Below, piece by piece: positions 39,752 to 53,603 of a stretch of 64,000 nucleotides of DNA. The stretch comes from Escherichia phage 55. The notes under the pieces are model-generated. The model was not told the origin of the DNA. It saw only the letters and a list, made by a program, of their open reading frames with translations, and made no database searches. A program made the translations under genes and the position numbers. How positions within the stretch are numbered: the stretch's first letter is position 1; every line of letters starts with the position of its first letter. The stretch is taken from sequence record OQ599310, one strand, 5' to 3'.

Positions 39752-42700
39752 TTATGCTAAACGAACGATATAGTTAAAAGCAACGTTTTTAACTGTGTTT
39801 TCTGTATTTCCTGTGGCATTTACAGTTATTGTATGTCCATGGGAACCAATTGCAACAGTATGAGAATGAGCACCAATACCTACCGAATGGGTATGAGCAC
39901 CAATACCTACCGTATGAGCATGGTTACCCGTAGAGCTAGTAGTTCCTGACCAACTATGGGTGTGGGCACCGTCATTTGATGTTTTACCGACCTTAGTTGC
40001 TAAAGTCGAACCAGTGATACCTGAGTTAATTTTAGCATATGAGTTTGCACCTATCGTAGTAACCCCGTCTCTAAACAAACCGTCTGCCCATGCAGCAATG
40101 ACCTGTGGACCTGAACGCGCGTGTTGGTGAGCTCCTGCGGAACTAGTATTACCACTCACTGTATGGGTATGGTTACCAGTGGTATTACTGGTCTTAGTAC
40201 CATAATCAAATCTTGAAGTCGTTTTGCTACCGTAATCAAAACTAGAAGTGGTCTTAGTACCCAAATCTGTGCTTGATGCACTTGCACTATGGCTATGTGA
40301 CTTAACACCGTCTGCTTCTGTACTTAATACAGCGCGCCCAGATGGTTTACCCTTGATAGTTTGACCACGCATATCAGGCAGAGCGCCAGAAGGATACACC
40401 GCAGCTAACTTAGGATACAAGCCAGTATCAAATGTTTGGCCTTCCATTATGGCATAACCTTCAGGAGGTGTATCAGTAGGCCAAGGAATCGGAGCACCAA
40501 TTGGATAACTTGAGACAATATCAGTTTTAAGTGATTCAATTGTACTATTTAAGTTGGCAAAATTACCAGAACCACCAGTAATGTTACCGTCTGTACCTAA
40601 ATAAACTGAACCCCCAGCAGAAATGCGCTTAGGAGATATAAAATCACCAGAACGTGTAAATTCCCAGCCTAAATCTTTTATAGTTGCGCCTGTTGAACTT
40701 CCGTCTCCACCTTCATGATAATGAACTCTGAAGTTACCGCCATTTATTAAAGTACCTAAAGAATAACAGCTATTTCCTTGAACATAACGTTGTTTTAAAA
40801 TAGGAACGTAAGTACTTGTATCTGTGCGATTAATATTCATATAGAACGGAGCACGAACGTTTTCATTATTTTGTGAAGCAAAAGACCCTGCACCAGCCGG
40901 GCGAACGGTGTCAGTACATTCAGCATCAATATAAGCTGCTTGTCCTACCTGCATACGGTAATTAGGAGAAATACGACTATGACTAGTAACAACAACAAGT
41001 TTGTTATCATTGTCCACAGTAATCATATTACCGCCAGCGCCATCATCGCCTAACGTGACAGAATGGCGCATTTGTACCATACCATTATTAAGACTAATAC
41101 TTAATGGACGGAGATTGCTTATTCCACCTGATTCTCCAGCATCTTTAGGAGTCGGGATAATATGCAATGCCGCCTCTGAACGACGGAAAATAGCACCATA
41201 TTCAGCATTCCAAATTCTTAACGCATCTGCAGTTCCGCCAAACTTAGCCTGGCCATTTACTGTCATGCCATTATTAACACTCAAAGAAGATTCAGTTGTA
41301 ATAGAACCAGAAGCAACAATACTACCTGAAGTTAATAAACCGCCATTAACTCGGAATTGAATAGGTCCGACAGTAGAACCTACACCAGGAGCAACTCGTT
41401 GAGAATAAAAATGGTAACCTTGTCCATCTGATACTTCAAAAACTGTTTCACGGGAATGATCGCCAGATGCGTTAAAGGCATTACCCCATGCTTTAACAGT
41501 TACATAACTCTTATTCTGGCCTGCTCGAGTGCCGCCTTCCCAAAGGATTTGTTTGGTGCCATCAATCGTGGTAGTTGCTGAAAAAGTCAAACCTGCTGTT
41601 GAGTTATTAGCTGCTAAATATACGCCGTTATATATTGAAAGCTGCTTAACAGATGTAATACCGCCATCAGCATAAAACCTTACATTATTAGCGCCTGTTA
41701 CTAGTTTAAGAACACCGGGGTTAATTTCCATACCTTCTTGGGTATTAATATTCATTTGGCCTTTACCGCGGAAATAGTGCGACATTTTTCCACCAGAGTT
41801 ATAGCCAATATGCGTCCGACCGTCCCCTGCGTTATTCACATCCGCTTGAGTTTGGACTGATAAAAATGCAGCATTAGTACCAGGCATAATCCATGTAGTG
41901 CCTTGGTCTTCTGAACGTCCAAATAACGCTTTACGAGTACTACGGAAACTGTCAGGAGTAATAGAAGCAACAGAATAACCACCGCCAACTAAATCATAAA
42001 CTCCTTGTTTAATATATTTCAGACCTGTTACAGTGTCACCGAGAACAAGATACTTATCGCCCATTACACCGACGTTACCATAATCGCTAGACGGGAAATC
42101 TGTAGTGAATGTACCTAATGCAAGGCTATTACGGCCAGCCATTCGACCATCATTACGAATACCATACTGTTTTGACTGTGGAGTATTACCTGTCCACCAA
42201 GACATTTCATCAGCTTGGCCTAATTGAGCAGTACAAAGCTCATGCCACATAGTGCCACCGGATTTGGCACGAACTCTACGAAGATAGTTTACACCATTCG
42301 TTTCACCGGTGCCTGGGTATACATAGTTAACTAATGAATCCGTATCATATACACCAAAGGCTTTTCCACCGTGAATAACTGTATCAACTGCAATGCGTTT
42401 AGTTACTAACGAATCTGATGCTAAAATACGGTTAGCCTGAAATTCGCCTCCATTTATAGAACGGAAATAGAATTCACTATTAGTAGTGCTTCCTGTTCCT
42501 TGTCTAACCCTAAGGCGTATTTCACCATCAGTTGTAGTTTGAGGACGAGCATATATAACGCCTCGTTCAGTGCCATCGGCATTTTCAAACCATAAATGGG
42601 CATTTGCAGTATCGTTTGTTGCTCTTGTATAAAATGAACCCTGTGTAGATCTGAAAACTTTTGCAGTTACGCCATCAGTAGAACCAATTGGTCCGTTTAC

Positions 42701-42943
42701 AGTCATTCCACCTGTTTGTACATAATCGCCATTTAATCTCAAAAGTCCGTTAATAGTAACGTTGCCGTCAACTTGCCCGCCCTTAGCAAAGCCTAGGCTA
42801 ATAATATTACCGAGGTCATCTTTAGTAAAAAGAGTTCGATCCTTTAAGTTTATCGCTAATTCGCCTTCGGCTAATTGTGCTGCAGTAGGATTAACTCCTG
42901 CCACTTTGCTTCTTTTAAATTGTATCTGTTTTAATGTAGCCAT
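39752..42943 (-). CDS. 37: gp37 long tail fibre distal subunit
   Basis: 1063 aa; C-terminal His-x-His repeat region ([24 protein letters not shown]) typical of the gp37 tip. Confidence 0.9.
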
Positions 42944-49989: not shown

Positions 49990-50305
49990 TATTAAACCGG
50001 TTGATGAGGCCGGTTTATCTGAACAAGAATTAGCAGTAAAACACGATAAAGATGATATCGCTAAATTGCTTGACCGACAAGAAAACGGATTCATTATCGA
50101 ATCCATGGTTGAACAATTTGGTATGTCTTATTTAGAAGCAACAACTGCTTTCTTGGAAGAAAATTCTATTCCAGAAACACAATTTGCTAAATTTATTCCT
50201 ACAGGAATTGTTGAAAAAATTACAAGCGAAGCAATTGACGAAAACATGCTTCGCCCATCAGTTGCTCGTGGTGAAAAAACTAATACGTTAGATTTCTTAT
50301 TATGA
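49967..50305 (+). CDS. 33: gp33 late-transcription co-activator
   Basis: 112 aa; position between dsbA and 59. Confidence 0.6.
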   Translation: MTQFSLSDIKPVDEAGLSEQELAVKHDKDDIAKLLDRQENGFIIESMVEQFGMSYLEATTAFLEENSIPETQFAKFIPTGIVEKITSEAIDENMLRPSVARGEKTNTLDFLL

Positions 50306-50985
50306 AATACGTTGTGTATAAAACTACCAATAAAATAAATGGTAAAATTTATATAGGCGTACACAAAAAACATAAAGAGAAAGATTGGTATATTGGATCA
50401 GGCCGCGCTATATTAGCGGCCAAAGCTAAATATGGACTAAAAAATTTTTATACCGAAATTCTTTATGAATATGATAATGACAAGGACGCCTATAAAAAAG
50501 AAGCAGAATTGGTTAACGAAGATTTTGTTTTGCGAGATGATACTTATAACTTAGTTCCCGGTGGTAAAGGTGGTCCTGGTAAAAAACAAAGTGATGAAGC
50601 TAAAAGGTCTATTTCACTTTCTAAATTAGGTAAACCTAGATCTGAAGAGACTAAGGCTAAAGTATCTAAAACAAGACTAGAAAGAAAAATACCGTCACCT
50701 AATAAGGGTAAGAAACTATCTGAAGCTCACAAATTGGCCTTGAGTAAAGTCCGAAAAGGGCGAAAAACGAATAAGCCGATGCCTGATTCAACCAAAGAAG
50801 CTCTTAGAATAGCAAATTCAAAGCCGCATTCTAAAGAAAGAACTATTAAAAAACAAAAACCTATAATTATTGATGGTATAAAATACGCCTCGTGTAAAGA
50901 AGTTTCAAATGTTTTTAATATTTCTGCGTCTTTAGTTACATATAGACTTAAATCTTCAAAATGGTCCGGATGGAAATATGATTAA
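50302..50985 (+). CDS. free-standing GIY-YIG homing endonuclease (Seg-like)
   Basis: N-terminal VVYKTTNKINGKIYIGV GIY-YIG motif; basic C-terminal half with NUMOD-like repeats; overlaps both neighbours. Confidence 0.7.
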   Translation: MKYVVYKTTNKINGKIYIGVHKKHKEKDWYIGSGRAILAAKAKYGLKNFYTEILYEYDNDKDAYKKEAELVNEDFVLRDDTYNLVPGGKGGPGKKQSDEAKRSISLSKLGKPRSEETKAKVSKTRLERKIPSPNKGKKLSEAHKLALSKVRKGRKTNKPMPDSTKEALRIANSKPHSKERTIKKQKPIIIDGIKYASCKEVSNVFNISASLVTYRLKSSKWSGWKYD

Positions 50986-51631
50986 AATACGCATGCCTCC
51001 TGATGGAGAACGTTATATTAATGGAAAATCGGTATATAAACTATACTTGATGTGCAAAAACCATTTTGGTGGTCGGTATGACGTAATCAAATATAACTGG
51101 TGCATGCGTGTTTCGGATAATGCGTATCAAAAACGCCGAGATAAATATTTCTTTGAGAAACTAGCAGAGAAATATAAGTTAAAGGAACTCACCTTGATAT
51201 TCATCAGTAACTTAGTTGCTAACCAAGATGCATGGATTGGTGAGATATCAGACGCTGATGCATTAGTTTTCTATAGGGAATATATTGGACGTCTCAAACA
51301 AGCCAAGGAGACGTTTGCCGAAGACATACGTAACATCTACTATTTCAGTAAGAAAGTGGAAGTTAGTGCGCTTCAAGAGATATTTGATTATAATAATAAA
51401 GTTCAGTCGAGCTACATATTTAAATTGCTACAAAGCAATATAATTTCATTTGAAACCTTCTTGTTGTTGGATTCATTCTTGAATATTATAGATAAGCATG
51501 ACGAACTTACTGACAATTTAGTCTGGCAAAATTATTCTACCAAATTAAAGGCATATCGAAAAATACTTCAAATCGATGGAAATGCTGCTAAGAAATTGTT
51601 CATAGAAACAATCAAATCATGTAAGTATTAA
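50978..51631 (+). CDS. 59: gp59 helicase loader
   Basis: 217 aa; strong match to T4 gp59 (YKLYLM.K, DVIKYNWCMRVSD, SYIFKLLQSNIISFETF). Confidence 0.85.
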   Translation: MIKIRMPPDGERYINGKSVYKLYLMCKNHFGGRYDVIKYNWCMRVSDNAYQKRRDKYFFEKLAEKYKLKELTLIFISNLVANQDAWIGEISDADALVFYREYIGRLKQAKETFAEDIRNIYYFSKKVEVSALQEIFDYNNKVQSSYIFKLLQSNIISFETFLLLDSFLNIIDKHDELTDNLVWQNYSTKLKAYRKILQIDGNAAKKLFIETIKSCKY

Positions 51632-51668: not shown

Positions 51669-51747
51669 AATCATACCAGCTACGAGGTATAAGTGTCGTA
51701 GCAACCAACTGTAAATAAATTAAATAATCTAAATAAAGGTAAATATA

Positions 51748-52695
51748 ATGTTTAAACGTAAATCTACTGCTGACCTCGCTGCTCAAATGGCTAAACTGAA
51801 CGGTAACAAAGGTTTCTCTTCAGAAGATAAAGGCGAATGGAAGCTGAAGCTAGATGCATCCGGTAATGGTCAAGCGGTAATTCGTTTCTTGCCAGCAAAA
51901 ACTGATGATGCACTACCATTTGCAATTCTTGTTAACCATGGTTTCAAGAAAAATGGTAAATGGTATATTGAAAATTGCTCTTCTACACATGGTGATTATG
52001 ACTCTTGTCCTGTATGTCAGTACATTATTAAAAATGACCTGTACAATACCAACAAAACTGAATATTCTCAACTGAAACGTAAAACTTCTTATTGGGCTAA
52101 TATTCTGGTTGTTAAAGACCCTCAAGCTCCAGATAATGAAGGTAAAGTATTTAAATATCGTTTCGGTAAAAAGATTTGGGACAAAATCAATGCAATGATT
52201 GCAGTTGATACCGAAATGGGTGAAACTCCAGTTGATGTTACTTGTCCGTTTGAAGGTGCTAACTTCGTTCTGAAAGCTAAGCAGGTTTCTGGTTTTAGCA
52301 ACTATGACGAATCTAAATTCTTGGGTCAATCTGAAATTCCTCGTATTAATGACGAAGCATTCCAGAAAGAACTATATGACCAGATGGTAGACCTTACTAC
52401 TTTGACGGCTAAAGACCAGTTCAAATCCTTTGAAAAATTAAATGAATCTTTCGCTAAGGTTCTTGGTACTGCCGCTCTTGGTGGTGCAGCAGCTGCAGCA
52501 GCTTCTGTTGCAGCAGCTGCAGCAGCTTCTGTTGCAGCTGCTGCAGCTTCTGTTGCAGATAAAGTTGCTTCTGACCTTGACGATTTTGATAAAGACATGG
52601 AAGCCTTTAGTTCTGCAAAAACTGAAGACGACTTCATGAGCTCTACCTCATCTTCTGATGACGGCGACCTCGATGACCTGTTAGCTGGTCTATAA
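51748..52695 (+). CDS. 32: gp32 single-stranded DNA-binding protein
   Basis: 315 aa; N-terminal [23 protein letters not shown]; zinc site [15 protein letters not shown]. Confidence 0.9.
52486..52560 (+). repeat. in-frame tandem repeat (about 27 bp, roughly three copies) encoding [23 protein letters not shown] inside gene 32
   Basis: GCAGCAGCTGCAGCAGCTTCTGTTGCA repeated. Confidence 0.7.
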
Positions 52696-52701
52696 TAAAT
52701 T

Positions 52702-52724
52702 GGGAGACTTCGGTCTCCCTTTTG
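52702..52724 (+). terminator. rho-independent terminator after gene 32
   Basis: GGGAGACTTCGGTCTCCC then TTTT. Confidence 0.7.
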
Positions 52725-52810: not shown

Positions 52811-53173
52811 ATGGAAACCGGAAAAACGTACATCATCAACCCTGCATTTAAAGCTACCTTCGCTAACGAATGCCCACAAAATGCTGAAATGCTGTCTTTG
52901 ATTGAGCTTCATGGCCCTAGTTTTGTTGTAAAAGACATGAACACAGAGTACGACGATGATAAATGTGTAACACGTGTAACTATGCGAGACGGCACTGAAT
53001 TGGGTTTTGACGGTAAGCCGGGTTCATATTTTGAGCTTTATGACGATGAGTTCAAATACTTCATCGAGGTATCCCCAGAGTCTATTTCTAAACAGTCACT
53101 CATCTTTGAAGTTACTGAAGATAACGCCCGTGATGTGATTGCAGAAATTAAAGAAATTTTTGGAATAAAATAA
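52811..53173 (+). CDS. hypothetical protein, tandem paralog A
   Basis: METGKTYIINPAFK...LIELHGPSFVV...EFKYFIE shared with next ORF; identical RBS context. Confidence 0.5.
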   Translation: METGKTYIINPAFKATFANECPQNAEMLSLIELHGPSFVVKDMNTEYDDDKCVTRVTMRDGTELGFDGKPGSYFELYDDEFKYFIEVSPESISKQSLIFEVTEDNARDVIAEIKEIFGIK

Positions 53174-53198: not shown

Positions 53199-53603
53199 AT
53201 GGAAATCGGAAAATCTTATATCATTAGCCCTTTATTTAAAGACGACTTTGTTCAAGAAGCACCACATAATAACGCTAAGATGTTAAAACTGATTGAACTC
53301 CATGGGCCTAGTTTTGTTGTAAACGGAATGGAACCTGATTATGATAGCGATACGTCAAACGTAGTAAGTGTAACTATGGAAGATGGTACTGTATGTTCTG
53401 CCGGTGGTGGAATTGAAACTTATTTTGAGATTTATCCTGACGAGTTTAAATACTTTATTGAGTACTTTACTGAGGTAGATTTAGTAAAGCCTCAACCTAC
53501 TAACGAAGGTATAACTTTAGGTGTAACAAAAATCCATTGTATCGTAGATGAAACCAACGTCGACGAAATCATCAAACTTTTGCAAAAAACTTTTAAAAAG
53601 TAG
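53199..53603 (+). CDS. hypothetical protein, tandem paralog B
   Basis: MEIGKSYIISPLFK...LIELHGPSFVV...EFKYFIE. Confidence 0.5.
   Translation: MEIGKSYIISPLFKDDFVQEAPHNNAKMLKLIELHGPSFVVNGMEPDYDSDTSNVVSVTMEDGTVCSAGGGIETYFEIYPDEFKYFIEYFTEVDLVKPQPTNEGITLGVTKIHCIVDETNVDEIIKLLQKTFKK

Follow-up and report, generated by a model that had tools for sequence, protein, structure and literature searches.

An in-frame tandem repeat array at the core/C-domain junction of gp32 in Escherichia phage 55

Introduction

[quoted passage not shown] The question has a wider background, as engineered changes in the length and composition of SSB linkers alter cooperativity and release. A preliminary description of the locus had assigned the gene to gp32 and proposed that variation in repeat number could tune the linker of this protein. 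Here, we analyse a stretch of 64,000 nucleotides containing the gene (hereafter, the window), and ask what the array consists of, whether its copy number varies among related phages, where it falls in the protein and how it may have arisen.

Identity of the gene

The assignment to gp32 is borne out by three kinds of matches. The protein matches Pfam family PF08804 (E 2.5e-60, 204.5 bits for a cut-off of 26.8), residues 39-238 being aligned with positions 1-207 of the 208 profile positions. It also matches T4 gp32 in PDB entry 8gme (E 4.9e-149) as well as the RB69 gp32 core (2a1k/2atq), and is exactly identical to WEW54176.1, annotated as 'putative single-stranded DNA binding protein [Escherichia phage 55]' and encoded by one 170,393-bp contig; phage 55 is itself a Mosigvirus. 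A search of the literature turned up no publication on this isolate or on how it was sequenced. The zinc-binding residues H64, C77, C87, and C90 are all present and are invariant in a 57-sequence alignment. The N-terminus, MFKRKST, contains the basic cooperativity motif KRKST, and the acidic C-terminal domain contains the DLDDLL motif, both as defined for T4-type gp32 (PMC12893549, PMC535899). The closest genomes belong to Mosigvirus (RB69-like), in which gp32 (for example, in phages RB69, JN02, UGJNEcP1/2, and PhAPEC2) is the same protein, with the same gene order and the same C-terminal motifs as in the window. Gene 59 lies directly upstream of gene 32, and gp59 is likewise followed by gp32 in PECP20 and JS09.

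Table 1. Features of the gene 32 region (positions refer to the window).
Feature	Position	Strand	Description
Gene 59, DNA helicase loader	50978-51631	+	PHROG 269, E 3.1e-84
Gene 32, ssDNA-binding protein gp32	51748-52695	+	315 aa; TAA stop, second TAA directly after
Gly245-Gly246	52480-52485	+	GGT GGT; adjoins the 5' end of the array; from the sequence
gp32 tandem array	52486-52554	+	in frame in the gp32 ORF
Repeat copy 1	52486-52509	+	GCAGCAGCTGCAGCAGCTTCTGTT, 24 nt, AAAAAASV, residues 247-254
Repeat copy 2	52510-52533	+	GCAGCAGCTGCAGCAGCTTCTGTT, same as copy 1, residues 255-262
Repeat copy 3	52534-52554	+	GCAGCTGCTGCAGCTTCTGTT, 21 nt, AAAAASV, residues 263-269
Long hairpin	52507-52547	+	19-pair stem (scan); arises only through expansion
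Amphipathic motif ADKVxxDLDxF	52555-52587	+	11 residues, equivalent to T4 A255-F265; from the sequence and alignment to T4 gp32
Acidic Ser/Asp-rich C-terminal tail	52588-52692	+	ends DLDDLLAGL; from the translation and family alignment
Intrinsic-terminator-like hairpin	52702-52723	+	GGGAGAC-TTCG-GTCTCCC then TTTT (scan); just 3' of gene 32

Structure of the array

The array (Table 1) is made of two exact 24-nt copies followed by a 21-nt variant, arranged head-to-tail according to both TRF and a 24-mer search, and totals 69 nt or 8+8+7 residues. Copies 1 and 2 both read GCA GCA GCT GCA GCA GCT TCT GTT, and copy 3 reads GCA GCT GCT GCA GCT TCT GTT, departing from the unit through a synonymous A-to-T change and a missing GCA codon. 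On the 5' side, the array follows two glycines, of which G245 is almost invariant across the gp32 family alignment; on the 3' side, it is followed by unique sequence (GCA GAT AAA), the residue after the array peptide (residues 247-269) being A. Since 24 and 21 are both multiples of three, a change in copy number would not switch the reading frame.

TRF reports a period of 24, 2.8 copies, 95% matches, and a score of 111, which is the top score of the 64-kb window. When up to three mismatches are allowed, the unit 24-mer occurs three times, always inside the array, for 0.00 occurrences expected from 100 dinucleotide-preserving shuffles. The sequence itself, the ORF list, TRF, and the shuffles thus confirm the location and frame of the repeat given in the preliminary description, and TRF, which had been suggested as a check, does recover the array. 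The description of about three copies also holds, as two exact copies plus one shorter variant, but the unit, given as about 27 bp, has an actual period of 24 (sequence and TRF). Similarly, the encoded peptide was correctly described as an Ala/Ser/Val tract, except that its first unit had been given one Ala short.

Copy number among related phages

The expanded allele is a singleton, present on one contig across all collections searched. Among GenBank phages, the best 60 gene-32 matches span 903 or 900 nt, versus 948 nt in the window, and the C-terminal 316 nt of the window gene align to 271 nt in relatives. When collapsed to one array copy, the query aligns end to end and in a single piece in 150 records, and in 60 records sampled across these 150, the span in the record never exceeds that of the collapsed query. 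Judged by length, approximately 150 related GenBank (Mosigvirus) records are single-copy. Relative to RB69/Mosigvirus gp32, which is 299-300 aa long, the 315-aa protein of the window carries the AAAAAASV unit three times, its third occurrence being the shorter one. In the 90% cluster (59 members), listed lengths are 299, 300, 302, and 315.

Searches for further expanded alleles gave the same picture in larger collections. The exact repeat-junction pattern has no match in IMG/VR, and none of the 30 IMG/VR matches to a degenerate version of this pattern encodes gp32 according to tblastn, indicating chance matches. JGI metagenomes and GTDB genomes yielded no match to the repeat-junction pattern either. 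We also modelled nine two-copy alleles on five backgrounds, none of which was found by exact look-up in a collection of 15 billion proteins. As neither a second array nor a two-copy allele was detected in the collections searched (approximately 150 GenBank records; IMG/VR, JGI, and GTDB; the protein collection), no copy-number variation was found among the sequenced isolates. A comparison of gp32 lengths among isolates, as the preliminary description had recommended, leads to the same result, the relatives listed in the cluster being 299-302 aa long and only the window protein reaching 315 aa.

The insertion is otherwise unaccompanied in the protein. Collapsed to one copy, the window gp32 is identical, residue for residue, to gp32 of JN02 and UGJNEcP1/2 (8 contigs), so that nothing but the insertion sets it apart from these phages at the protein level. 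The array is also the sole position at which the window gp32 differs from all 33 non-redundant relatives with more than 90% identity. No other odd residue was noted in the window gp32, S94I and T104 being common to JN02-type alleles.

The protein searches also returned several apparent database artefacts (entries P0001, P0041, P0070, and P0085). Two 'metaclust' entries are scrambled or concatenated T4 gp32 fragments and one ends in HHHHHH, while T4-like gp32 sequences also appear under the names of Enterococcus faecalis (partial) and Acinetobacter baumannii. Such entries probably represent constructs, contaminating phage sequences, or phage contigs within assemblies of bacteria.

Position of the array in the protein

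In T4 gp32, the core comprises residues 22-253 and the C-domain residues 254-301 (PMC5892887, PMC12893549). This C-domain and ssDNA compete for the core cleft, and filament dynamics are also influenced by the C-domain (PMC5892887, PMC12424635, PMC11811875). Residues 250-264 are helical in the complex with the Dda helicase, with V258, L262, and F265 as key contacts, and a peptide spanning residues 248-270 binds Dda, whereas peptides 240-253 and 240-255 do not (PMC11551737). The repeat unit aligns with T4 A247-K254 (AAATAAKK), that is, with the boundary between core and C-domain and with the beginning of the helix that binds Dda. The tract had been placed just before the acidic C-terminal tail; it does immediately precede the region of partner interactions, but this location is too coarse, as the unit corresponds to T4 residues 247-254. 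The single T4 copy, in which the junction unit is aligned and which is followed by the ADKVxxDLDxF motif common to both proteins (8GME; He et al. 2024, PMC11551737), ends in a trypsin-sensitive Lys-Lys.

Downstream of the array, the ADKVxxDLDxF motif is intact and contains the equivalents of the Dda contacts V258, L262, and F265; its A, D, L, and F are almost invariant in the family alignment. Compared with T4 gp32, alignment thus places 15 extra residues between Gly-Gly and the putative contact residues. These 15 Ala-rich residues are inserted behind the Gly-Gly at the end of the last core helix, immediately N-terminal to ADKVxxDLDxF and the acidic tail. Because every known contact residue is intact, the insertion would lengthen the tether that joins the ssDNA-binding core to the C-terminal domain, its position being directly read from the alignment and its effect presumed. 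The C-domain folds back onto the DNA-binding cleft as well as recruiting Dda, gp59, and other replisome proteins. AlphaFold2 assigns a pLDDT below 50 to residues 244-268 in the window protein and keeps a downstream helix (266-288), while the single-copy relative is predicted to form one helix of low to moderate confidence at 247-274 (pLDDT ~48-67). The added residues may extend the helix or form a coil.

Is the length of this segment free to vary in the family? We aligned 195 non-redundant homologues, down to ~36% identity, and counted residues from G240, an invariant anchor of the alignment, to the Phe of LDxF in the 164 homologues in which both anchors were aligned. This spacing is 24 residues in 150 of them and ranges from 18 to 31 in the rest, compared with 39 in the window, the longest of all. 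A spacing count based on regular expressions agrees (12 in 143 sequences, 9 in three, and 27 in the window), and the pattern GTAxxGGAAxxAxxxAD is conserved in gp32 homologues. With both length and sequence well conserved, the gp32 segment does not behave as a free-length linker of the EcSSB IDL type, and with its spacing nearly fixed, a general mechanism of length tuning is hard to support. Together with the approximately 150 single-copy records and the absence of a second array in the collections searched, this leaves the proposal that repeat-number variation tunes linker length unsupported. The near-fixed spacing from G240 to F suggests selection on length, in which case an insertion of 15 residues may not be neutral.

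How the array may have arisen

We consider it probable that the array is a genuine in-frame tandem triplication of codons 247-254 (AAAAAASV) in an RB69-type gp32, generated by slippage or unequal recombination and resulting in a lengthened tether. The replication slippage or unequal recombination would have taken place in a GCA/GCT-rich tract, and a 5-nt microhomology (TGCAG) bounds the repeat at 52485-52489 and 52554-52558. The tract of every relative inspected is interrupted by a GCC codon: PECP20, JS09, and an IMG/VR contig have it as codon 3, and UGJNEcP1, JN02, and PhAPEC2 as codon 4. By contrast, the window tract has no GCC interruption, so that the unit reads (GCAGCAGCT)x2 + TCTGTT, and copies 1 and 2 consist of an uninterrupted GCW tract ahead of the Ser and Val codons. 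Slippage or unequal recombination in this purer repeat would be the simplest origin. Differences from relatives in the tract are all synonymous, and the reading frame is kept.

Copy 3 would have been altered later. Part of it forms with copy 2 a 17-nt inverted repeat that is 94% complementary (pair I6), and as the copy 3 variant is complementary to copy 2, one quasipalindrome-templated event could, speculatively, account for both the A-to-T change and the 3-nt loss. We infer this order of events, since neither a two-copy intermediate nor an uninterrupted single-copy precursor was found: the uninterrupted single-copy 73-mer has no 100% match in GenBank phage records and is absent from IMG/VR.

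Neighbouring features

An ORF of 227 aa for a GIY-YIG-type homing endonuclease (50302-50985, + strand; PHROG 314, E 1.2e-55) is located upstream of gene 59, the start of which it overlaps by 8 nt at its 3' end. This ORF is missing from PECP20, in which gp33 abuts gp59, and is carried by UGJNEcP1, SA79RD, and other relatives, all with a single-copy gp32 tract. A link between the array and this endonuclease, located 1.5 kb upstream, was considered and rejected, because relatives with a single-copy tract have the same endonuclease.

The gene 32 leader contains an A/T-rich 9-nt repeat (TAAATAAAC, 2.9 copies) at 51712-51737 (+ strand), just 5' of the start codon, which matched no Rfam family. In T4 and RB69, the gp32 translational operator has its unstructured part at this leader site (PMC535899). 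At the other end of the gene, PhAPEC2 has an annotated terminator at the position equivalent to the terminator-like hairpin of Table 1. Directly 3' of gene 32 are two adjacent paralogous ORFs (52811-53173 and 53199-53603, + strand), both frd.2-like and belonging to PHROG 622, of which only one is annotated at this location in PECP20 and JS09. The 200 nt 3' of gene 32 show 111 differences from UGJNEcP1 in an ungapped comparison. Within gene 32, an antisense ORF (52326-52637) and an ORF in frame +2 (52442-52639) were discarded as repeat-driven artefacts of the ORF list, without supporting evidence.

Another tandem repeat of the window, detected by TRF at 39858-39922 (27 nt, 2.4 copies, score 102), lies in a - strand ORF (39752-42943) encoding a 1063-aa long-tail-fibre-like protein. 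It falls in the C-terminal part of this protein, where it encodes His-x-His repeats, which presumably resemble the metal-binding HxH repeat of T4-type gp37.

Weighing alternative explanations

A technical concern is that the true genome is single-copy and that the two extra copies were added during assembly or polishing. The allele is known from a single contig and a single source, it is absent from the approximately 150 related genomes and from all other collections searched, and the region is both low-complexity and strongly self-complementary, features that are troublesome for certain sequencing chemistries and polishing programs. On the other hand, at 69 nt the array would fit within a typical short read, and the usual tendency of assemblers is to collapse repeats of this kind, not to expand them. 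Moreover, copy 3 is an imperfect 21-nt variant which still keeps the frame, the differences from relatives in the tract are all synonymous, and the whole downstream C-terminal domain is preserved in frame. Given the array length and the imperfect but in-frame copy 3, an artefact has a lower probability than true slippage, and is improbable overall.

If the triplication is genuine, it could act at the level of RNA, through a stable hairpin in gene 32 mRNA causing translational pausing, attracting an RNase, or partially terminating transcription. RNA of region 52480-52565 folds at -51.4 kcal/mol (z -2.84, with 1 of 200 shuffles as stable), whereas the single-copy relative reaches only -13.3 kcal/mol (z -0.52), and a terminator consensus scan marks the long hairpin as terminator-like. 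However, such a hairpin is the automatic outcome of repeating a self-complementary GCAGCTGC-type unit, and the fold of the array as DNA is ordinary relative to shuffles (-29.6 kcal/mol, z -1.37). Its T tail (TTCTGTTG) is weak, and the hairpin sits inside an essential, heavily translated ORF, the true terminator-like hairpin being that at 52702-52723. It is also devoid of conservation, being found in no other sequence, and an Rfam search of the gene 32 region gave just miRNA-like hairpin matches, far below gathering scores. We thus regard the array hairpin as a by-product of the self-complementary unit and not as a functional element, and a role in RNA is very improbable.

A longer Ala-rich segment may also have been selected in the protein, as it might weaken auto-inhibition of the cleft by the C-domain, alter the reach or geometry with which Dda, gp59, or the polymerase is recruited, or let gp32 evade a host defence that senses it. 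The strong conservation of segment length in other phages implies that a change could have a phenotypic effect, binding kinetics and the recruitment of partners are known to be regulated by the C-domain, and the at least three separate mutational steps in the array hint at some persistence in the lineage. Yet, the expansion has neither spread nor recurred in other sequenced phages, and the rest of gp32 is unremarkable. Some host defence systems sense phage SSBs, which is what the idea of defence evasion builds on. An adaptive origin is thus unlikely, and we are rather doubtful of its specific form, namely that the insertion is a selected change of the core/C-domain tether which retunes auto-inhibition or partner recruitment, or allows escape from a gp32-recognising host system. 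Were it true, phage 55 would represent a naturally occurring mutant in linker length, affecting a segment that otherwise hardly varies in length among T4-like phages.

A genuine triplication by slippage or unequal recombination therefore remains our preferred reading. As the phage was isolated and propagated, the expanded allele is compatible with growth. Most likely, this allele is recent and neutral or mildly deleterious, and is not a regulated or variable device.

Comparison with known systems

Like the linker of EcSSB, the gp32 segment is a low-complexity sequence that connects the OB-fold domain responsible for DNA binding with an acidic C-terminus to which partners bind (PMC11811875). 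The EcSSB linker, however, is poorly conserved in length and sequence, whereas the gp32 segment is of near-fixed length, and the latter is also partly helical when bound to a partner, as seen in T4 (PMC11551737).

The mode of expansion has parallels too. Polyalanine-tract expansions arising from imperfect GCN repeats are known, for example, in vertebrate transcription factors, and give alleles that are stable rather than dynamic. The array resembles them in the in-frame growth of an Ala run encoded by mixed GCA/GCT codons, plausibly through unequal recombination or slippage, but its unit is a 24-nt block including Ser-Val instead of pure Ala, and its host gene encodes a phage replication protein.

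In gene 32 itself, the T4 deletion PR201 removes residues 292-296 of the C-domain and leaves the phage viable, with altered binding kinetics and partner specificity (PMC5892887, PMC535899). PR201 and the phage 55 allele are both small in-frame length changes in the C-terminal region of gp32 in a viable phage, but the former is a deletion in the distal acidic tail and the latter an insertion at the proximal junction. The phage 55 array is thus a one-off allele of a well-known protein, produced by a known kind of event.

Implications

As a single allele of a very well-studied protein, the array matters little alone. Curators of the genome should mark this region for a check against the reads. 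The allele nevertheless provides a natural experiment, since the segment has the same length in ~90% of homologues and a viable phage carries 15 extra residues in it. The 300-aa (JN02-type) and 315-aa (phage 55) forms of gp32, otherwise identical, would allow a direct comparison of the effects of tether length on auto-inhibition, filament dynamics, and helicase recruitment.
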